The notes: a model not told the origin generated them from the sequence alone. DNA of 64,000 nucleotides from an uncultured Gammaproteobacteria bacterium (GCA_964635045.1 CAZWMJ010000002.1:7688-71687), one strand, 5' to 3'; shown: positions 1 to 31,241, counted from the first letter of the stretch. A program made the numbers and translations.

Positions 1-350
1 TCTTTTGCCAAGAGGCCTTTTTTTTCTATTTTTTGTAAAACTCCTTTTAGCTCATCAAATAATTTTCCTACATATTGCAGGCTTTCTTTTCTCTTTTTCA
101 CTCGGGCAACCAATCTGACAGCTTCTATGTGTCTTTCTTTTAAGGCGCTGACTTCATCCTGCAAATTTTTTTCTTTTTTTTCTGCTAATTTAGCGCATTT
201 TAGAAGTCTGTCTGTCACGCCGCTAAAAGCGGATACCACCACCGCAATCTTTCCTTTTTGCGAAGCCGACATCGCTATCTTTCCCACTTTTTTTATTGTT
301 TGTGGTGTTCCGACAGAAGTCCCGCCAAATTTTAATACTTTTTTAAACAT
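1..350 (-). CDS. aspartate kinase, N-terminal part (gene continues past the left window edge)
   Basis: Missing from the ORF track only because the window edge cuts it. Minus-strand translation from ATG 350-348 gives MFKKVLKFGGTSVGTPQTIKKVGKIAMSASQKGKIAVVVSAFSGVTDRLLKCAKL... This carries the KFGGTSV and VVSAxxGVTD N-terminal signatures of aspartokinases. GGAGG lies at 366-362. Confidence 0.8.
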   Translation of the reverse strand, partial: MFKKVLKFGGTSVGTPQTIKKVGKIAMSASQKGKIAVVVSAFSGVTDRLLKCAKLAEKKEKNLQDEVSALKERHIEAVRLVARVKKRKESLQYVGKLFDELKGVLQKIEKKGLLAK

Positions 351-380
351 AAACAAAAAAACCTCCTGACATGGGAGGCT
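351..380 (-). terminator. intrinsic terminator inside the aspartokinase leader (also buries the SD)
   Basis: Minus strand reads AGCCTCC-CATGTCA-GGAGGTT (380-360, 7 bp including one G-U), then a T-run and GTTT directly before ATG 350. The GGAGG of the 3' arm is the only SD-like element for the gene. Confidence 0.5.
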
Positions 381-407
381 GTACACACATTACAATTACA
401 ACCTCCT

Positions 408-458
408 TTAACAAGGAGTAATTGTAATTACAATTTCTGCCAAACTTATTTTTTTCAT
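408..458 (-). CDS. putative attenuator leader peptide MKKISLAEIVITITPC
   Basis: ATG 458-456 to TAA 410-408, starting 13 nt after the TATACT box. Codons 9-14 are ATT GTA ATT ACA ATT ACT (IVITIT) and overlap hairpin segment 1. Below the ORF-track size cutoff. Confidence 0.45.
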   Translation of the reverse strand: MKKISLAEIVITITPC

Positions 459-511
459 ATAGACAGCATCTAGTATAACAAAACTAACATCAGCTTGTCA
501 ATAATTCTAAT

Positions 512-2095
512 TTATTTTATTAAAGGATCTGGAAACGGGATAGGCATAAGAGCTTTTATTTCCCCAATTTCTTCTCGTAAATATCTTTGTGCATTTACTT
601 TTTTTCCTGTTAAGGGGTCTATGATAGTTCTATCATTAACCCACAAAAACCAATGATTCATTCCCGTTTCCTTTCGTACTCCAAGAGCCATGTGAGGAGT
701 ATTAACGCGATAATCGGGACCAAATCTGTCTACCATATCCTCCGCGCCAATTAAAAAAAAGATACCGGCGGTACTGACGCCGCCTCCTTCTTCTACAAAC
801 TGATCCGGGGCATAACCTAACATTTCAAGGCATGCCTCCCCGCAAGTTTCTTCTTTCGACTGTTTCCGTACATAAATCTTATGTTTTCCATCTGATCCAG
901 TAAGTATAACTTCTCCTGTGGGCTTGCTGGTTTTGCTGGCCGTGTTTGCAAGTTGCAGAGAATCTCTAATTGCTTGTCCAATCAAATAAATTGCTCCTCC
1001 ATCTTCCGTTCCCCCCGCAATACGCACATTGCCGCTTCGATCATCCGGCCAAATTCTGGTTTCATTAAATCCAAAACTTTGTCCCAATTTACAAAAGTGT
1101 CTTATGACTGGATTATTCCATAGAATAGTTGTTATATCATAATGATCCAAACGATCATCTCTGGTAGCACCAATAAAAAGAACTGGCGACGCACCGAATG
1201 GAAATCTTTTATTCGCATATTCACTATTTGAATGCGAAGAAAGATTAGGATACATTACCACGAATGCACCTCCTGCTATTTCTGCTTCTTGCGCGGCTTC
1301 TGCCAATGAAAAGGTATTTTGAAGAGTTTGCAGATTTCTTCTATCAAACTCTTCTTTTGAGGGAGGTATAATCTTTGCAAGCTGTAAAACGGCTGAAGGC
1401 GATGGAGTAGGACCTCTTCGCTTACGTCTATCTAACAAGCGTTGTATGAGCTCTTCTTTGTTTGAATAAGCTACGCCCAGCATTTCTCGATTTAATCCGT
1501 AGTATTTTGTGCCACTCTCAACCACAATCACATCAAGATCTGTGCTATTCAATATTTCTCTCATTGGCAAGCCAGATGGCGTTGGGAGTGTGTTATCTAA
1601 AACAATAAGAGGATTTACTCTCTTTACTGTTTCGTGAGATAAAAATTCTTCAATAGGAAGTACCGACATGCTTTGAGAGTTTGCCACAGTTTCAAAAAAG
1701 ACGATATTGGGTCTATGTCGTCCTATGGCTCTTATGATGTCAGAAAGTGAACCGCCGTCAACCTGTACTGTTTTTACTCCTCTGCCTTTTAACTCCTGAG
1801 TAATGTACCAGTTTGATTGACTATACAGTCCGTCTCCATGCACAATAGTCGTTTCTGCAGTTGGACGAGTAAGTTCCAAAGTTTCAGCTACTGCCAGCAT
1901 TCCACTGGGATATAACACAACTCTCTGTGAGGGAATTCCTACAAGTTCGGCGATTGTATCTGTAAAAGCCGCCAATTTAAGAGTGCCATCCCGCGGATAC
2001 ATTTCTACAGGTTGCATGTTAGCTCTTCTTCGTTGTGCTTCAATCAAAGCCGGTACTGATACAAATGATGGAACTTCTGGTAATTTTACTGTCAT
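512..2095 (-). CDS. fusion protein: Cys/Met-metabolism PLP-dependent enzyme (CGS/OAH-sulfhydrylase-like) with C-terminal papain-fold peptidase C39-like domain
   Basis: 527 aa. Residues ~35-385 show YPSGMLAV, FETVANS, VLDNTLPTP and ESGTK197YYG (PLP-lysine position, codon 1505-1507). Residues ~395-527 show KQ412SKEETC418GEACLEMLGY (Cys codon 842-844) and NH481WFLWVNDRTIID493P, the Q/C/H/D layout of C39 peptidases. ATGA overlap with thrC (2092-2095). Confidence 0.6.
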   Translation of the reverse strand: MTVKLPEVPSFVSVPALIEAQRRRANMQPVEMYPRDGTLKLAAFTDTIAELVGIPSQRVVLYPSGMLAVAETLELTRPTAETTIVHGDGLYSQSNWYITQELKGRGVKTVQVDGGSLSDIIRAIGRHRPNIVFFETVANSQSMSVLPIEEFLSHETVKRVNPLIVLDNTLPTPSGLPMREILNSTDLDVIVVESGTKYYGLNREMLGVAYSNKEELIQRLLDRRKRRGPTPSPSAVLQLAKIIPPSKEEFDRRNLQTLQNTFSLAEAAQEAEIAGGAFVVMYPNLSSHSNSEYANKRFPFGASPVLFIGATRDDRLDHYDITTILWNNPVIRHFCKLGQSFGFNETRIWPDDRSGNVRIAGGTEDGGAIYLIGQAIRDSLQLANTASKTSKPTGEVILTGSDGKHKIYVRKQSKEETCGEACLEMLGYAPDQFVEEGGGVSTAGIFFLIGAEDMVDRFGPDYRVNTPHMALGVRKETGMNHWFLWVNDRTIIDPLTGKKVNAQRYLREEIGEIKALMPIPFPDPLIK

Positions 2096-3531
2096 CGTAG
2101 TAATTTAAGTCTTTCGGAAATAACTCTAACTATTTGATCAGCATCGGGCTCAACAGGAATTGGACGATTGGCAAAGGTGGAGACAATCTTTACTCCTCTG
2201 GGAGTAACTTGCGAAGATAAGTCAAACTCTTCATGAAGATTGTCTGCATGATAAAAAACAATATAATCAGGATCTTTAAGCATGTGTCCCGTTAAAATTG
2301 CCACAACTTCTTCATCTTTATCAAACATTACATCTGTTCCTTCTTCTACAATTCTCTTCAGTCCTGCAATAGCAAGAGCGGAAGCTGGTTCACAACCAAT
2401 GCCATCCCGACCAACAACCGCCTTGGCATCGGCTATTTGTTGTTCATTAACCTGTGTAACCCATCCATTAGTTTGTTTAATTCCATCCAGTGCTTTTTTC
2501 CAAGAAACGGGGTCGCCGATTTTGACAGCAGTTGCCAAAGTTCTAGCATGAACTGTAATAAGATGAGAATCGTCTCCGCTTGTTATTGTTTGATAAAGAG
2601 GATTCGCTCCCTGCGCTTGAACAACTGTAAGCTTTGGTAGTTTATCAATAAATCCCAACATCTTAAGTTCTCGCAAACCCTTCCACAGAGCGGCGGCATG
2701 TCCAAGATTGCCTCCAGCTACAATAATTCGATCTGGAACTCGCCACCCCCGTTGTTCCAAAAGTTCGGCAACTATTGTTTTTTGCCCTTCGATTCGAAAT
2801 GCGTTAAGCGAATTAACAATGTAAGCACCGACTCTCGGTGCTATTTGTCTTGTAAGATTCATGCATCCATCAAAATCAGTATCAACTTGAAGTGTTAATG
2901 CTCCATAGTCTAGCACCTGCGATAATTTTCCATACGAAATCTGTCCTTTTGGTAAAAGAACAATCCCAAGCATACCTGCTCTTCTTGCGTATGCCGCTTC
3001 CGAAGCAGAGGTATTACCTGTTGAACCGCAAAGAATAGCTCGCGTTCCTAAAATTCTTGCTTGTGTGGCGGCCGCGGCCATTCCCGGATCTTTGAAAGAA
3101 CCGGTTGGGTTCCAGCCTTGATGTTTTACCTGTAGGCGCTTGAGTCCAACATATTGGGCACATCCTGGCGCTTCAAGAAGTGGTGTGTTTCCTTCCCCCA
3201 GCGTTACCACTTGTGAGGAATCATCAACAAAAGGTATAAATTCACGGAATCTAAACACTCCACTTCTGTCTTCGGGCCTTTGCGATGTTCGGCGTAGAAC
3301 CCAAACATCTTTTAATTCTTCTGGGTCAAGATCAACTGGAAATCGATAGATGACGTCTAAAATATCACCATCTCTTGCACATTCGTAAACTGGGTCGGGT
3401 CTTGTGGGATATCGAACATCACAGGTAATACAGGCAAACTCCGCACGATCAGCAAAGCCGGGGTTTGCTTCCAAAACTCTGCGGGTGTTAACAATTGCTT
3501 CCTTAGCTAGACCTAACTGTTCTACCGACAT
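2092..3531 (-). CDS. thrC: threonine synthase
   Basis: 479 aa. Has the GSFKDPG PLP-lysine motif (SFKDRG type) and GSTGNTSAS. An N-terminal CITC...YEC looks like a remnant of the zinc-ribbon seen in long-form ThrC. Confidence 0.9.
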   Translation of the reverse strand: MSVEQLGLAKEAIVNTRRVLEANPGFADRAEFACITCDVRYPTRPDPVYECARDGDILDVIYRFPVDLDPEELKDVWVLRRTSQRPEDRSGVFRFREFIPFVDDSSQVVTLGEGNTPLLEAPGCAQYVGLKRLQVKHQGWNPTGSFKDPGMAAAATQARILGTRAILCGSTGNTSASEAAYARRAGMLGIVLLPKGQISYGKLSQVLDYGALTLQVDTDFDGCMNLTRQIAPRVGAYIVNSLNAFRIEGQKTIVAELLEQRGWRVPDRIIVAGGNLGHAAALWKGLRELKMLGFIDKLPKLTVVQAQGANPLYQTITSGDDSHLITVHARTLATAVKIGDPVSWKKALDGIKQTNGWVTQVNEQQIADAKAVVGRDGIGCEPASALAIAGLKRIVEEGTDVMFDKDEEVVAILTGHMLKDPDYIVFYHADNLHEEFDLSSQVTPRGVKIVSTFANRPIPVEPDADQIVRVISERLKLLR

Positions 3532-3556
3532 GTATGTTAGAGCAGGATGTGCCGCG

Positions 3557-3586
3557 ATTATACATCGCTGACAAACTGAAAGTCAA
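3557..3586 (-). promoter_or_regulatory. sigma70-type promoter for thrC operon
   Basis: Minus strand TTGACT (3586-3581), 18 nt, TATAAT (3562-3557). A 25-nt leader runs to ATG 3531. Confidence 0.5.
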
Positions 3587-3607
3587 ATTCTGTGCTACAC
3601 TAAAAAC

Positions 3608-3943
3608 ATGAGGCGGAGGAGTCGGCCAATTTGGCTTCTAATTGTAAGTCTAATGTTATTGGGTTCCTTGGTTTATCTAACCATCTTCTTCTCCCCCAAT
3701 TATTCAGTGCTAATCGTCAATTTCCACTTATCAATTACTATTGTTTTCTTTTTCCTTCTTTTTTTCTTTGTTAGCTGCCTAGCAATATATCTTTTGAAAA
3801 ATATCCGTCGGGGAATATTTGTGGCTTTGTTTGTGACCGCCTATCTTCTTTTTCGCCTTTGGCATTTAACCCACCCCTTTTTTCTCATCCTGTTGCTGGC
3901 CGTTTTTTTCACCCTTGAACTCTTTTCCTCCAACAGAAAATAA
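3608..3943 (+). CDS. small integral membrane protein, function unknown
   Basis: 111 aa with 3-4 hydrophobic helices. TACACT (3596-3601) lies 6 nt before the ATG. Confidence 0.5.
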   Translation: MRRRSRPIWLLIVSLMLLGSLVYLTIFFSPNYSVLIVNFHLSITIVFFFLLFFFVSCLAIYLLKNIRRGIFVALFVTAYLLFRLWHLTHPFFLILLLAVFFTLELFSSNRK

Positions 3944-3965
3944 CAACAACTTCATTTTCTTGCCG

Positions 3966-5558
3966 TCAGCTTTTAGGCCGTCCCAGCTTCTCTAATTTAT
4001 TACCAAATTTCTGCCATAATCTTGCTTCAATTTCTGTTCCCCAGCCGCCATGGGGAATTGCACCAATAAAACCCTGTGAAATTTTAGCAATCAACCTCCT
4101 GACTGTATAATGCCAAATCTTTCCATCTCTAGAAACATTTTTACCAACTTGAGCTGGTATTGGCAAAACTGATCCCAAAGTGGGGATAGCAGAAATTAAG
4201 GCTGCCAGTCTTAAATCAGTTTTTGTGATCAAACCCGTTGTGAGTGTTACTGCTGGGCGCAACTGGGGTAAAACCCGCCCTAGGAAAAATCCCAATGCAG
4301 CTGTTTCTAGTTTATCTTCAGCAAATAGAGCCGTTAAATATGCTGATCCCTCGATAAGATTAATTAAAATACTAGAAGCTATATAATATACCTGAAGACC
4401 CATCAGCGCATTAAGTTCTTTAGTAGTCAACTCTGCACGAGCAACGCGCCAAGCGTCAAGCCACTCTGGCTCACTAATGATTCCTTCTTTTTTAGCTCGT
4501 TGAACACCAGCAAGGACAAAGTTCTTATTAAATAAGAAAGCTCTGTAGGAAGGATATTTTAATATCCCAGCCAGAATTTCTAACTTCTCTTTTCTGAAAA
4601 GAGGATCGGCGAGAAATTTCCAGACAGACCGCTCTGTTAGTAAATCCGTGGCTACTTCACCTGCTGCTCTTGTGGCAGATTTGAAATCTTTATGAGGAGA
4701 AACAACATCAGCTTGCGTTTTGAGATTTTGATAAAGCTTAAGATCCGACATGACTTCGTTAAATTCTTCGTCCGAAAACAAAGATTTATGCTTAATAATC
4801 TCACTTAAAAAATAACCAACATGAATACTATTAAAAGTTCTTTCTTTTTGGAAAAACCAATGTCTTAACTGACCATGAGACTTGAAATGGAAAAACGGCC
4901 AAGTCCAGCCATTGTGAGGAATTGCCGGATCTGTATCCAACCAAATCCAAGGCTGTTTTTGATTTTGAGGATCAAACCACAAATTAGCCATACCAAAAGG
5001 GTTATCGGGATGAATTTGTCCTGCCTGCTCAAGGCCAAGGTTCAAAGCAAGCTCAAACAACTCCTGCTGGGCTTTTCTAAACTCGGAAAACTCATCAACT
5101 CCCAAATCAAATCTTGGTCCTCGGCCAACCATCTTTTCTTTAACTTGAGCATAACCTGTGGTAAGTTTTGTATAACCATAAGATGCGGGCGTACAAAATT
5201 TACCTCGTGAAACTATCGGCAATACTCTGTGAATAATTCGCGCTGTTAAATGCTCAAGCTGTGCCGCCGCTTCATCCTTGTTCGCCGGAAGATCTTCAAA
5301 ACCCCAGTTAACCACTCGCCAAAGGTGATGCCAAGCATCAGGCAAAGAAGTCTTGATAACACGATCGCCCTCTTTGGGAATTAAAACTTTCCCGAAGAAT
5401 CCTCCGCCGCGAACCTCGCCAATCGTCATCTGCTGCGGGTTTTCAACAACAGCGCCATCAAGTCCCAAAGTTTTTAAAGTAAATGTCAATTTTTGCCCGG
5501 GAGAAAACTCTTTGTAAGGACTTTGAGCTATCGATTCACTCCGTTCCGAATTTACCAT
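3966..5558 (-). CDS. protein-kinase-like fold protein with C-terminal membrane-spanning region
   Basis: Gly-rich loop plus Lys in GGGFFGKVLIPKEGDRVIKT. Catalytic-loop-like IHPDNPFGMANL, then IWLDTD. The last ~150 aa hold three hydrophobic helices. Start moved to ATG 5558 (MVNSERS...) because TATAAT (5571-5566) lies 7 nt upstream; the track start at 5585 is TTG. Confidence 0.45.
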   Translation of the reverse strand: MVNSERSESIAQSPYKEFSPGQKLTFTLKTLGLDGAVVENPQQMTIGEVRGGGFFGKVLIPKEGDRVIKTSLPDAWHHLWRVVNWGFEDLPANKDEAAAQLEHLTARIIHRVLPIVSRGKFCTPASYGYTKLTTGYAQVKEKMVGRGPRFDLGVDEFSEFRKAQQELFELALNLGLEQAGQIHPDNPFGMANLWFDPQNQKQPWIWLDTDPAIPHNGWTWPFFHFKSHGQLRHWFFQKERTFNSIHVGYFLSEIIKHKSLFSDEEFNEVMSDLKLYQNLKTQADVVSPHKDFKSATRAAGEVATDLLTERSVWKFLADPLFRKEKLEILAGILKYPSYRAFLFNKNFVLAGVQRAKKEGIISEPEWLDAWRVARAELTTKELNALMGLQVYYIASSILINLIEGSAYLTALFAEDKLETAALGFFLGRVLPQLRPAVTLTTGLITKTDLRLAALISAIPTLGSVLPIPAQVGKNVSRDGKIWHYTVRRLIAKISQGFIGAIPHGGWGTEIEARLWQKFGNKLEKLGRPKS

Positions 5559-14257: not shown

Positions 14258-16147
14258 ATGGAAGATACTTCACTCATTATTGATTTTGACAGCACTTTTG
14301 TCACTGTTGAGGCTCTGGATGAGTTAGCCCGGATCGCCCTAAAAAATAATCCCCAAAAAAAATTAACACTTAAAAAGATTGCCAAAATTACCAGACTTGG
14401 CATGGAAGGAAAAATTCCTTTTTCCCAATCACTCTTCCAACGACTTGCTCTTTTTAAGACCAATAAACATCATGTCAAAAAACTGGTCTCGCTGCTTCAA
14501 AAAAACATCACTCCTTCTGTTAAGCGCAATAAAATGTTTATCAAGAAACATGCCAAGCAAGTTTATATTATTTCCGGAGGGTTTGCGGAATATATTTTAC
14601 CCATTGTTAAGACTTTTGGCATCCCCTCTTCCCATATACTTGCCAACAGCTTTATTTTTGATAAAAAGGGGAGTGTTACCGGCTACGACACAACCAATCC
14701 ATTAAGTAAAACAAACGGCAAAGCAAAAGCGGTTGCCAAATTAAAATTAAAAGGAAAAATCATTGTTGTGGGAGATGGCTATACGGATTATCAAATAGTG
14801 AAAACCGGATTTGCAAACAAATTTTTCGCCTTTACCGAGAACGTAAAACGAGCTTCTGTAATCAAAAACGCCGACATGACTTTAGAAAATTTTGATCAAC
14901 TCATAAGCCTTATGGAAGGCAAAAAACAGCTTTCATACCCTAAGGAAAAAATTAAAGTGCTGCTCTTGGAAAACATCCATCAGACGGCTTCGGACATCTT
15001 TACTGAAGAAGGATATCAAGTGACTACACTCCCGCGATCACTATCAGAAAAAGAATTAAAAACGGCAGTGGAAAATATTACTGTTCTTGGTATTCGCTCA
15101 CGAACAGAAATAACAGCAGATGTTCTATCTCACGCTAAGCATCTATTAGCAATTGGCACCTTCGCCATTGGTACCAATCAAGTTGACCTTAGCGCTTGCG
15201 CAAACAAAGGCACTGTTGTTTTTAACGCGCCCTACAGCAATACCCGCTCGGTAGTGGAACTTGCCATGGGAGAAATCATTATGCTTAAGCGCAAAATATT
15301 TGATAAGAGTCAAAAAATGCATCAAGGGATTTGGGACAAAAGTAGCGCCGGCGCTCATGAAATACGCGGAAAAAATCTCGGTATTATCGGCTACGGCAAC
15401 ATCGGATCGCAACTTTCTGTAATGGCAGAAGCCTTGGGAATGAACGTCTATTTCTATGATATTGCAGAAAGACTAACATTGGGAAATGCCAAAAAATGCA
15501 AAAGCTTAAACGAACTTCTAAAAATTGCCGATGTTGTGACATTACATGTAGATGGCAGAAAAACCAACAAACATTTAATAGGTAAAAACGAATTTTCCAA
15601 CATGAAAGACGGCGCGCTTTTTCTTAATCTAAGTCGCGGCTTCATTGTAGACATGGAAGCGCTCTCTCTTGCGCTGAAGAGCGGAAAATTGGCAGGATCT
15701 GCAGTCGATGTCTATCCTGAGGAACCAAAAAGCAATACCGATCCATTTATTTCCTCGCTTCAAAAATTGCCAAACGTTATCCTCACCCCTCATATTGGCG
15801 GCAGTACAGAAGAAGCACAACACAACATCGGTGAATTTGTGACAAATAGTATTATTCGCTTCATCAATACCGGATCTACCGAGCTGAGCGTAAATTTTCC
15901 CAACCTCTCTCTGCCAGACCAGCTAAATGCCCACCGGCTGATCCATATCCACAAAAATACTCCCGGCATTCTTGCCAATATCAACAAAATTCTTGCCAAG
16001 AATACAATCAATATCCTCGGACAATACCTGAAAACTAACGAAGAAGTGGGTTACGTGATAACCGATGTTGATATTAATTACAGCAAAAAAGCCATCGAAG
16101 ATCTTAAAAAAATTCCGCAAACAATACGGATGCGCGTACTTTATTAA
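14258..16147 (+). CDS. bifunctional phosphoserine phosphatase (HAD, SerB-like) / D-3-phosphoglycerate dehydrogenase (SerA) with ACT domain
   Basis: 629 aa. N-terminal IIDFDSTFVTVEALDELA, SGGF and GDGYTD are HAD motifs. From ~residue 230 the dehydrogenase part shows GIIGYGNIGSQ (NAD site) and PHIGGSTEEAQ, followed by a C-terminal ACT-like tail. Confidence 0.8.
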   Translation: MEDTSLIIDFDSTFVTVEALDELARIALKNNPQKKLTLKKIAKITRLGMEGKIPFSQSLFQRLALFKTNKHHVKKLVSLLQKNITPSVKRNKMFIKKHAKQVYIISGGFAEYILPIVKTFGIPSSHILANSFIFDKKGSVTGYDTTNPLSKTNGKAKAVAKLKLKGKIIVVGDGYTDYQIVKTGFANKFFAFTENVKRASVIKNADMTLENFDQLISLMEGKKQLSYPKEKIKVLLLENIHQTASDIFTEEGYQVTTLPRSLSEKELKTAVENITVLGIRSRTEITADVLSHAKHLLAIGTFAIGTNQVDLSACANKGTVVFNAPYSNTRSVVELAMGEIIMLKRKIFDKSQKMHQGIWDKSSAGAHEIRGKNLGIIGYGNIGSQLSVMAEALGMNVYFYDIAERLTLGNAKKCKSLNELLKIADVVTLHVDGRKTNKHLIGKNEFSNMKDGALFLNLSRGFIVDMEALSLALKSGKLAGSAVDVYPEEPKSNTDPFISSLQKLPNVILTPHIGGSTEEAQHNIGEFVTNSIIRFINTGSTELSVNFPNLSLPDQLNAHRLIHIHKNTPGILANINKILAKNTINILGQYLKTNEEVGYVITDVDINYSKKAIEDLKKIPQTIRMRVLY

Positions 16148-16159
16148 AACAAAAAAAGC

Positions 16160-18862
<2,703 letters not shown>

Positions 18863-29714: not shown

Positions 29715-31241
29715 ATTCTTTTATTAATCATCATTGGTATTTTCTTTCGTTTCTATAATCTTAACTGGGGTTCTCCTTTTTATTTTCACCCGGACGAGAG
29801 AAACATTGCTTCTGCCGTTTCTCAATTACAATTTCCCCAAAATCTAAATCCCCACTTTTTCGCCTATGGCTCATTTCCGATCTATATTATTTATATAGTA
29901 GGAGTCTTCTATAATCTGTTCTCCCATTTTCCAGCTTTCGCCGTTTCTTTTGAGCAGGCCATTTTGATCTCCCGATTTTTTTCTGCGATATTAAGTGTCG
30001 CTCTTATCCCAATGGTTTATCTCATTGGTAAACAAATCAAAGATAATACCACAGGACTTTTGGCGGCATTTTTAACAGTAACAAGTATTGGTCTTATTCA
30101 ATTTGCACATTTCGGCACATTCGAAATTTTGCTTACCTTTTTAGGTGTTTTACTTTTTTATTTCTCAATCAAACGAAACCTCGTTTTCACTGGCATAATT
30201 TTGGGGCTTTTACTCGCTACAAAAGTTTCAAGCATTGTTCTTTTGCCAATCCCCATTTTATCATTTCTACTTTACTTGGGAAAAAATAAGAAGATACGAA
30301 TTTATAAAATAACGACAAATATACTAACTTTTTGTGCCGCTACCCTGACAGCTTTTATTATCACCTCTCCTTTTGTATTAATAGATTTTCCATCATTTAT
30401 CGCAAGCATGAGATATGAATCATCTGTGGCTTTTGGCAGTCTTCCCGTTTTCTATACTGGTGAGTTTTTTAATACGGTACCGGTATTATTTCAATTTCTG
30501 CACATCTATCCATTTATCTTGAATCCTATCTTAACAATATTATTCATCCCGTCCTTACTTTACGTATCCCGCGGTGCTTTACAGAAAAAAAATGATTTTT
30601 ATTTATTGCTTATTGTTTCTTACTTATTATTATTTTTTTCTCAAAGCTTCTTGTTTGCAAAGTGGACAAGATATATGGTTCCCGGCTTACCGTTTATGTA
30701 TTTGATAATTGCTATCGGTATTAAAGACTGGTTAAACAGACAAGGCAGATATCTGATGTTGGGAATTATATTATTCGTGAGCGCTCTTTTTACCATCGCC
30801 TATTTCATAACTGTCCACGCAAAACCCGATACCAGAATTACGGCCGGCCTTTGGGCTGGGGAAAATATCCCCAGTAATAGTAAAATTTTAAGCGAAGTTT
30901 ATGATTTAGGCATTACCCCATTCAATCCCTATTTCAGTAATATCAAACTTTTTAATTTTTATGATGAACTTTTGCCAATTACTAATAATTACGATTATAT
31001 TATTCTTACCAGTCAACGCTTGTTAAAAACTCGTTTAACAAAAAAAATAAAATTTCCGCAGGGAAATAAGTTTTATGACTCGTTATTAAATGGGGCATTA
31101 AGATTTAAAAAAGTTTATGAAACTCCCTGTGATATTTTTTGCAAAATTACTTACTTGGGAGATCCGGTTTTTTCACTCGAAGAAACCGCAAACGTATTTG
31201 ATCGCCCTACAGTATTTGTTTTTAAAAAATTAAAAGAATGA
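29685..31241 (+). CDS. GT-C-fold membrane glycosyltransferase (ArnT/PMT_2-like), paralogue 1
   Basis: 518 aa, multi-TM. FYFHPDERNIA first-loop motif, shared with the paralogue's FHLHPDERAIV. The only candidate start codons are TTG 29685 or TTG 29706, both inside the heptamer array. Confidence 0.65.
   Translation: MKIENYKLKIILLLIIIGIFFRFYNLNWGSPFYFHPDERNIASAVSQLQFPQNLNPHFFAYGSFPIYIIYIVGVFYNLFSHFPAFAVSFEQAILISRFFSAILSVALIPMVYLIGKQIKDNTTGLLAAFLTVTSIGLIQFAHFGTFEILLTFLGVLLFYFSIKRNLVFTGIILGLLLATKVSSIVLLPIPILSFLLYLGKNKKIRIYKITTNILTFCAATLTAFIITSPFVLIDFPSFIASMRYESSVAFGSLPVFYTGEFFNTVPVLFQFLHIYPFILNPILTILFIPSLLYVSRGALQKKNDFYLLLIVSYLLLFFSQSFLFAKWTRYMVPGLPFMYLIIAIGIKDWLNRQGRYLMLGIILFVSALFTIAYFITVHAKPDTRITAGLWAGENIPSNSKILSEVYDLGITPFNPYFSNIKLFNFYDELLPITNNYDYIILTSQRLLKTRLTKKIKFPQGNKFYDSLLNGALRFKKVYETPCDIFCKITYLGDPVFSLEETANVFDRPTVFVFKKLKE

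Follow-up and report, generated by a model that had tools for sequence, protein, structure and literature searches.

What controls the aspartokinase gene that runs off one edge of the 64,000-nucleotide (nt) stretch CAZWMJ010000002.1:7688-71687 (assembly GCA_964635045.1, labelled as an uncultured Gammaproteobacteria bacterium; the whole stretch is called the window here, and positions are counted from its first letter)? Between an upstream gene with a pyridoxal phosphate (PLP) domain and the aspartokinase ATG lies a minus-strand region at 351-501, which a first-pass annotation read as an Ile/Thr-rich leader peptide with three alternative hairpins, that is, a ribosome-mediated attenuator in a genome resembling the Candidate Phyla Radiation (CPR). 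The region is likely to be a ribosome-mediated transcription attenuator of a probable ThrA-type aspartokinase gene, modeled to sense charged tRNA-Ile and tRNA-Thr and possibly tRNA-Val. It seems to be a regulator of known mechanism in a lineage where it is undescribed, and to be part of a wider set of thrA leaders in CPR.

On sequence, the region holds the parts that define a leader-peptide attenuator: a short open reading frame (ORF) with codons of the regulated pathway, a terminator, an antiterminator (2:3) exclusive with it, a 1:2 pairing that covers the regulatory codons, and a geometry that agrees with a ribosome footprint. These elements, their pairing energies, the in silico switch between them and the conserved architecture in CPR loci were read or computed directly.

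Promoter and Leader Open Reading Frame

The upstream PLP-domain gene (527 aa, minus strand) ends at 512 and the leader promoter follows directly, with no terminator between the two. The promoter is of the sigma-70 type and spans 472-501 on the minus strand, as are all leader features below; it consists of the -35 box TTGACA (501-496), an 18-nt spacer and the -10 box TATACT (477-472), read directly and recovered by a promoter scan, which counts 11 matches to the 12 consensus positions and a TG at 480-479 that extends the -10 box (TGtTATACT, 480-472). The leader ORF MKKISLAEIVITITPC occupies 408-458 and comprises 16 codons and a stop; its ATG at 458 is placed 13 nt downstream of the -10 box, its TAA lies at 410-408, and it has no Shine-Dalgarno (SD) sequence and a 5' untranslated region (UTR) of only 5-9 nt. 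The candidate regulatory codons are codons 9-14, AUU GUA AUU ACA AUU ACU (434-417), which encode I V I T I T and thus give a tally of 3 Ile, 2 Thr and 1 Val. The aspartokinase gene starts with the ATG at 350; before it come GGAGG (366-362) and a T-rich spacer whose T run ends 4 nt before the start; 116 aa of the protein (1-350, Pfam AA_kinase) lie in the window and the gene continues past the window edge.

Two further short ORFs overlap the leader. A second mini-ORF, MCVQPPMSGGFFVYV (343-390, minus strand), starts 11 nt past a GGAGG at 406-402, a spacing equal to that between the aspartokinase SD and ATG, and its stop codon (345-343) overlaps the aspartokinase start; it was rejected as a functional element and is considered a by-product, being unconserved in locus L015 and the other relatives and having an SD-like box that is paired in both conformations of the leader. 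An antisense ORF on the plus strand, MGGCTHITITTSFNKE (371-421), has its own Thr/Ile run, which mirrors segment 2, the complement of segment 1 (both described below); this is probably also a by-product, with no gene after it on the plus strand. No convincing further mini-ORF with such a run was seen when the parts of the window outside long genes were scanned.

Alternative Hairpins and the in Silico Switch

The promoter, the mini-ORF and all of the pairings proposed in the first-pass annotation were borne out at their minus-strand positions by direct reading, scans and folding. Segment 1 (413-434 in the minimum-energy fold) is the 5' arm of the 1:2 anti-antiterminator and lies within the Ile/Val/Thr/Pro codons. 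Segment 2 (389-408) has alternative partners, pairing either with segment 1 (408-403 with 418-413; 402-389 with 434-421) or, via 406-395, with segment 3. Segment 3 (374-386) is the 3' arm of the 2:3 antiterminator, of which 380-374 doubles as the terminator 5' arm. Segment 4 and the U tract together span 351-366; the terminator 3' arm GGAGGUU (366-360) includes the aspartokinase SD, and the tract consists of U7 (361-355), a G and UUU.

The 1:2 pairing was first named as 428-418 (ATTACAATTAC) with 399-389; this register is real, fully complementary over 11 bp and worth -9.6 kcal/mol alone or -15.1 kcal/mol with an inner UCCUU/AAGGA helix, but it is not the preferred one. The minimum-energy fold uses a neighbouring register (434-421/402-389 plus 418-413/408-403), an option opened by the period of 6 in the codon repeat; the result is a near-continuous 20-bp hairpin of -17.5 kcal/mol with the leader stop codon in its apical loop. 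The 2:3 core pairs GGAGGTTGTA (406-397) with TACAGCCTCC (383-374), and its best fold (406-395 with 386-385 and 383-374) reaches -14.7 kcal/mol. The 3:4 hairpin pairs AGCCUCC (380-374) with GGAGGUU at -9.3 kcal/mol and is followed by U7; a terminator scan also flags it, with 7 pairs, a 7-nt loop and a T-rich tail. In free RNA the combination of 1:2 and 3:4 is favoured at -26.8 kcal/mol. Once segment 1 is masked, 2:3 outcompetes 3:4 (-14.7 vs -9.3 kcal/mol), so that the antiterminator is energetically competitive, as the first-pass annotation had supposed.

The switch was followed codon by codon through footprint-masked folding, an equilibrium and purely in silico test in which the RNA from its 5' end through 12 nt beyond the first base of the A-site codon is forced to be unpaired and the remainder is refolded. 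The terminator forms with the A site at codons 1-7, the 2:3 antiterminator at codons 8-14 (E I V I T I T), and the terminator returns at the Pro, Cys and stop codons (15-17); this terminator/antiterminator/terminator pattern is stable for footprint extensions of +9 to +16 nt. The same pattern arose in 12 of 500 dinucleotide shuffles of 458-381 (2.4%). Whole-leader folding against dinucleotide shuffles gave z = -2.83, with 2 of 200 shuffles equally good, and none of 300 shuffles reached the duplex energy of either 1:2 or 2:3.

Proposed Mechanism

From these elements we infer translation of the SD-less mini-ORF, coupling of the translating ribosome to RNA polymerase, termination at the U tract and the amino-acid specificity. 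Transcription would start approximately 5-9 nt upstream of the mini-ORF, and a ribosome would translate MKKISLAEIVITITPC while RNA polymerase makes the leader. When Ile and Thr are plentiful, the ribosome is predicted to reach the UAA in the 1:2 loop, where its footprint would cover GGAGGUUGUA of segment 2 (406-397); segment 3 would then be freed, and the 3:4 hairpin with U7 would stop RNA polymerase 4-10 nt short of the aspartokinase ATG. Read-through RNA, where made, would have its SD locked within the 3:4 hairpin; a second, translational layer of control is therefore likely, as the SD lies within the terminator 3' arm. When Ile-tRNA or Thr-tRNA is scarce, the ribosome would stall on codons 9-14 (434-417), covering segment 1 and leaving segment 2 exposed; segments 2 and 3 would pair, no terminator would form, the SD would be free and the gene would be expressed. 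In the absence of translation 1:2 and 3:4 would both form and the gene would be off, and read-in from the upstream thrC-PLP genes would be blocked as well.

Related Loci in the Candidate Phyla Radiation

In all collections searched, the closest relatives of the aspartokinase N-terminus share 57-60% identity with it and come from metagenome-assembled genomes (MAGs) labelled Harrisonbacteria, Parcubacteria, Saccharibacteria or Patescibacteria group, plus some that are unclassified. Aspartokinase loci of Microgenomates, Peregrinibacteria and Kaiserbacteria follow at 40-53%, and the next matches belong to Bacteroidota, Ignavibacteria, Treponema and Bdellovibrionota at 36-45%. The comparative set was made up of 28 non-redundant loci of the CPR clade at 47-60% identity, in which a mini-ORF was sought up to 300 nt upstream. 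In 22 of the 28 one was found with 5 or more Thr among 8 codons, whereas none of the 28 reverse strands has one and it arises in 0.2% of shuffles; a 23rd Thr-rich leader, in L010, lies slightly further upstream and was found by a covariance-model search. Including the window, the leader loci carry the labels Harrisonbacteria, Parcubacteria, Saccharibacteria, Peregrinibacteria, other Patescibacteria and unclassified MAGs, along with the Levybacteria-like window itself. The conserved mini-ORF bears out the first-pass annotation; the relatives' codon runs are mainly Thr with Ile sometimes present, and the window's Ile/Val-rich version is an outlier.

Structures were analyzed in 24 loci (the 23 relatives and the window), using per-locus duplex tests against shuffles in place of alignment-based covariation. 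The pairing potential is conserved: a hairpin with a U tail follows the ORF in all 24, a shuffle-significant antiterminator (post-ORF region with the terminator 5' arm) was detected in 19 and a shuffle-significant 1:2 pairing (Thr codons with segment 2) in 15. Two relatives inspected early illustrate the arrangement, one with MELNLTTTTTCLATV and then GCCCCGaccGGGGCUUUUUU, the other with MNKVVFTTTTTTTSL and, after it, a CCGGC..GCCGG hairpin ending in a U run. Leaders of group A read MNKVVFTTTTTTTSP and then stop, ahead of CCGAGGUUGUAGUUAAAG..UAACUAAACCCCGGCCGAAAGUCGGGGUUU; those of group B read ...TTTTTR..AGEF with the stop codon within segment 2. Segments 2, 3 and 4 vary by locus while their complementarity is kept (GGAGG/CCUCC/GGAGG in the window, CCGAGG/CCCCGG/CCGGGG in group A, CGGGG/CCCCG/CGGGG in L005). 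Complementarity maintained despite changed sequence is, at the level of these comparisons, what an antiterminator/terminator switch requires.

The differences between the window and group A also bear on which amino acid is read. The segment-2 core is GAGGUUGUAGUU in group A and GAGGUUGUAAUU in the window, a G to A change, and AAUUACAAU/GUUGUAAUU in the window compares with AACUACAAC/GUUGUAGUU in group A, a two-sided change of C-G to U-A; the segment 1 part of it, C to U (AACUACAAC vs AAUUACAAU in the window), keeps the pair and turns ACU (Thr) into AUU (Ile). Alignment-based folding with RNAalifold recovered the antiterminator in group A with no two-sided changes, because the sequences are too similar; in group B, MAFFT misaligns the variable terminators and RNAalifold finds nothing useful. 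Exact-protein look-ups, made with the PLP enzyme and ThrC to follow the aspartokinase gene past the window edge, gave no more than two short Logan contigs; their leader is identical to that of the window and they add 39 nt. The population of the window also occurs in SRR12113383 and SRR12113384. At 57-60% identity, the best aspartokinase relatives are too distant for sequence-level covariation of the window's exact leader.

Footprint-masked folding was extended to the same loci, where the terminator is lost in 13 of 24 (the window and 12 of the 23 relatives). The test fails on E. coli thrL, which is experimentally proven and has a terminator of -20 kcal/mol; it is therefore considered conservative, and a negative result means little. 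That the window passes cleanly is due to its weak terminator.

Could the hairpin act on translation alone? Under such a scheme, of the ermC/cat type, the stalling switch is kept, 3:4 only sequesters the SD and the U run is simply the spacer between SD and ATG; the hairpin 3' arm is indeed the aspartokinase SD, the U run stops 4 nt short of the ATG and -9.3 kcal/mol is weak for a terminator. The relatives argue otherwise, as most of them have a strong GC-rich stem with a U tail located 19-117 nt upstream of the start codon and without SD contact, making termination the conserved output; in the window itself, the GC-core stem runs straight into a tract of 7 U, as is standard for a terminator. 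The two outputs are also non-exclusive, and transcription attenuation with SD occlusion as a second layer is the best explanation, so that purely translational attenuation is unlikely. Among the relatives, L015 has a terminator/SD/start geometry like that of the window (GACCUCG..CGAGGUUUUUGUUUAUAUG), with an SD-like box in the terminator 3' arm.

The relatives carry an equivalent promoter directly before the leader ORF. In a survey of the interval from -10 box to ATG (L003-L015, L026, L085-L101 and window 472-458), 22 of 24 loci have their best -10 box, often TGnTATAAT-like, end 6-9 nt upstream of the leader ATG (mode 7); the window is an outlier at 13 nt. A properly spaced SD before the leader ORF was found in none of the 24 loci. 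Such a gap implies that in most loci the leader mRNA is leaderless or has a 5' UTR of 0-3 nt. Taken together, the evidence leans towards thrA leader-peptide attenuation being a widespread, undescribed RNA class of CPR/Patescibacteria, mostly with leaderless or nearly leaderless ORFs, in which the window has been retuned from Thr to Ile/Thr (or Ile/Thr/Val) by paired changes in segments 1 and 2.

Some loci differ from this arrangement. L008 (2900-3000) and L088 (1000-1090), which at 59% identity are among the closest CPR aspartokinase relatives, have no leader ORF or attenuator, and nothing but a terminator, then a promoter and a short 5' UTR, precedes the gene; the element has therefore been lost or gained within the clade. 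L016 (2740-3000, Candidatus Microgenomates) and L096 (940-1195, an unlabelled metagenome contig) have no leader upstream of the match to the aspartokinase N-terminus. In both, the sequence just before that match is coding and resembles the last part of an amino-acid-kinase domain (..TLGRGGSDYSA..ANVLDANEVILW..), so that gene duplication, permutation or mis-assembly is suspected.

Covariance Model and Rfam Searches

A covariance model, R1, was built from 11 group A loci with the window left out. It scores the group B and other CPR leaders at 22-44 bits (E 3e-8 to 6e-3) and E. coli thrL at 18.8 bits; R1 mostly rewards Thr-codon runs rather than ancestry, and the window is without such a run. As R1 scores the window about as it does E. 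coli thrL, the model is no homology test for the window. The best R1 match in the window lies elsewhere, at 29989-30097 on the minus strand (19.7 bits, E 0.015), antisense within a long ORF and without a Thr-run ORF; chance most likely explains this match, which illustrates the limited specificity of R1.

Rfam families at gathering score matched nothing in the whole window except a tRNA, and 0 of 20 CPR loci matched any family. Thr_leader (RF00506) has no match in window 1-4000 even at E up to 10, and the sole leader-family match was Phe_leader at 23.6 bits vs a gathering score of 55 (E ~1). T-box and lysine riboswitch families gave no match at E up to 10 in window 1-4000 or at gathering score in the window.

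These searches also bear on a trans-acting factor as the regulator, either a protein on the perfect 14-bp palindrome ATTGTAATTACAAT (434-421), acting as DNA operator or RNA hairpin, or a tRNA or metabolite bound by a T-box or riboswitch. The palindrome has no mismatch and follows shortly after the promoter; it occurs once in the 64 kb, with no second site at 2 mismatches (0.83 expected by chance), and the relatives lack it, having ACAACUACAAC as segment 1. With neither a T-box, a lysine riboswitch nor any other Rfam family matched, trans-acting control is scarcely likely at all; the palindrome was rejected as an operator on the basis of its single occurrence in the window.

Weighing the Proposed Attenuator Against Coincidence

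Several findings weigh against the attenuator. The terminator stem is short, with 5 core pairs plus a G-U and an A-U at -9.3 kcal/mol, and with no leader SD and an ATG 13 nt past the -10 box, initiation must be SD-independent. The Ile/Thr richness of the leader is non-significant by itself, as at least 5 Ile/Thr in 8 codons occur in 6.4% of shuffles and 19 of the 426 tiles, each of 300 nt, taken from the window (the sequence is 38.5% GC); the case therefore rests on the combination of features and on the comparison with relatives. No relative exceeds 60% protein identity in the collections searched, and the exact Ile-rich version is confined to this population, L001 and L002 being one and the same sequence. 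R1 aligns the window full-length (458-355), but at 16.0 bits and E ~0.11, only second-best in the window; homology between the window leader and those of the relatives is no more than plausible.

Much of this would also suit a coincidence, in which a promoter and a structured, AT-rich 5' UTR are joined to a constitutive SD-masking hairpin or to the terminator of the thrC-PLP operon, the mini-ORF is untranslated and the pairings stem from a low-complexity repeat. The frequency of Ile/Thr-rich runs in shuffles, the several pairing registers that the period-6 repeat allows, the missing SD, the lack of a close relative and the non-significant covariance-model match are all in keeping with it. Such an unregulated terminator between a near-consensus promoter and its gene would silence that gene, however; the switch coincides exactly with the I/V/T codons; and the four-part architecture stands before the orthologous gene in ~80% of related CPR loci with differing sequences. 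Coincidence is consequently considered very unlikely, and a leader-peptide attenuator is retained as the likely explanation of the locus.

Regulated Gene, Neighbouring Genes and Host

The regulated ORF in the relatives is 778-828 aa long, and Pfam analysis of L006 and L015 shows AA_kinase, two ACT, NAD_binding_3 and Homoserine_dh domains, the bifunctional ThrA type; by comparison, the window gene is probably also a bifunctional aspartokinase-homoserine dehydrogenase. The pathway logic put forward in the first-pass annotation, that the regulated enzyme feeds Thr and Ile synthesis, is in agreement with this, since the gene after E. coli thrL is of the same type. The aspartokinase gene is preceded on its own strand by the PLP enzyme and, two genes upstream, by threonine synthase (2092-3531); this pair has its own promoter. 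The PLP gene (512-2095, minus strand) has an ATG that overlaps the threonine synthase stop codon (2092-2095) and encodes a Cys/Met-metabolism PLP domain at residues 28-298 with a C-terminal part of ~230 aa. The 'C39' in the label first given to this gene could not be confirmed, the last 148 aa having no Pfam match at E up to 0.1; a synteny search with the PLP protein among species-representative genomes found no relative.

Further along the window, 14258-17380 on the plus strand encodes a 629-aa fusion of HAD phosphatase, D-2-hydroxyacid dehydrogenase and ACT domains (SerB-SerA-like), followed by a class-V aminotransferase (SerC-like). Judged by these predicted functions, the SerB-SerA/SerC-like genes together with thrC and thrA represent more amino-acid biosynthesis than is usual for CPR. 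Proteins labelled Candidatus Levybacteria, Microgenomates or Patescibacteria share 85-90% identity with the GroEL encoded at 17210-18844 in the window; the earlier assignment to a CPR-like genome therefore holds. An identical GroEL is encoded on a 79,430-nt NCBI contig (P0042).

Implications

The mechanism is a textbook one and the understanding of attenuation is unchanged; what is extended is its range, as ribosome-mediated attenuation would now reach CPR, a case covered by no Rfam family or paper in the literature searched. A leader-peptide attenuator needs a ribosome close behind the polymerase, and the element is therefore indirect evidence for transcription-translation coupling in CPR; such coupling differs between bacterial phyla. 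That at least some CPR genomes keep, and would regulate, a ThrA-type enzyme qualifies the view of CPR as wholly host-dependent for amino acids. If the leaders are functional, ultra-small and supposedly auxotrophic bacteria couple translation tightly to transcription and regulate de novo aspartate-family amino-acid synthesis by tRNA charging; in most CPR loci the sensing ribosome would load on leaderless or nearly leaderless mRNA. The ~25 CPR leaders collected here would be a possible seed for a new RNA family and for better annotation of MAGs, in which such short ORFs and terminators are currently unannotated.

Comparison with Known Systems

In Firmicutes, RNA-level control of aspartokinase and aminoacyl-tRNA genes is usually by T-box leaders and the lysine riboswitch. 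Leader-peptide attenuation is reportedly also present in Proteobacteria, some Firmicutes and Bacteroidetes/Chlorobi (Vitreschak et al. in 2004), and leaderless polycysteine short ORFs in mycobacteria are said by Canestrari et al. in 2020 to attenuate cysteine genes without classical terminator hairpins. The CPR leaders resemble these mycobacterial ORFs in their predicted regulatory role, in having no SD and in starting at or near the transcript 5' end, as the CPR spacing from -10 box to ATG suggests; they differ in amino acid and in phylum, and the window has a 5' UTR of probably 5-9 nt rather than zero.

Bacteroidota, including Flavobacterium, have a Thr-run leader ORF upstream of thrA, their aspartokinases being the nearest non-CPR homologues (40-45% identity); the likeness concerns the ORFs, and unlike that of the window the peptides are longer (30-37 aa), with a conserved PFGV tail (...TTTTTTPFGV). 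Nearly all Bacteroidota thrA loci analyzed (L021, L024, L039, L051-L083) have leader ORFs with this ending, the Chryseobacterium leader being TSIIITITITTPFLG, and marine metagenome contigs (L121-L164) have leaders with ...TTTTTTITL. By their sequences, the Bacteroidota and marine leaders are a separate, large Thr or Thr/Ile leader family. Clues for leader-peptide attenuation upstream of amino-acid operons have been described in F. psychrophilum (PMC9723704), and such attenuation is documented or predicted in Actinobacteria (PMC1262725). In the literature searched, no paper connects CPR or Patescibacteria with leader peptides or attenuation, in line with the first-pass annotation, which was not aware of any described in CPR-like genomes.

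The window shares with the other CPR thrA leaders its position, promoter, short ORF, segment-2 core (GAGGUUGUA(G/A)UU), antiterminator overlapping the terminator and ThrA-type gene; unlike the window, these relatives have runs of 5-8 Thr codons (such as MNKVVFTTTTTTTSP), GC-rich terminators and an ATG 6-9 nt past the -10 box. E. coli thrL is a close parallel in design, although there is no detectable sequence or covariance-model similarity to Thr_leader. The peptide of the window is shorter, with 3 Ile, 2 Thr and 1 Val compared to 8 Thr and 4 Ile in E. coli; its terminator is weaker (-9.3 vs -20 kcal/mol) and has a 3' arm that is the SD of the regulated gene; its leader ORF is without an SD; and its host is a CPR bacterium. 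In common with the E. coli thrL-thrABC system (RF00506), the window has a Thr/Ile-rich peptide, 1:2, 2:3 and 3:4 hairpins, an intrinsic terminator and the same predicted stalling logic, and the gene regulated in E. coli is a bifunctional aspartokinase-homoserine dehydrogenase, the type found in the CPR relatives.

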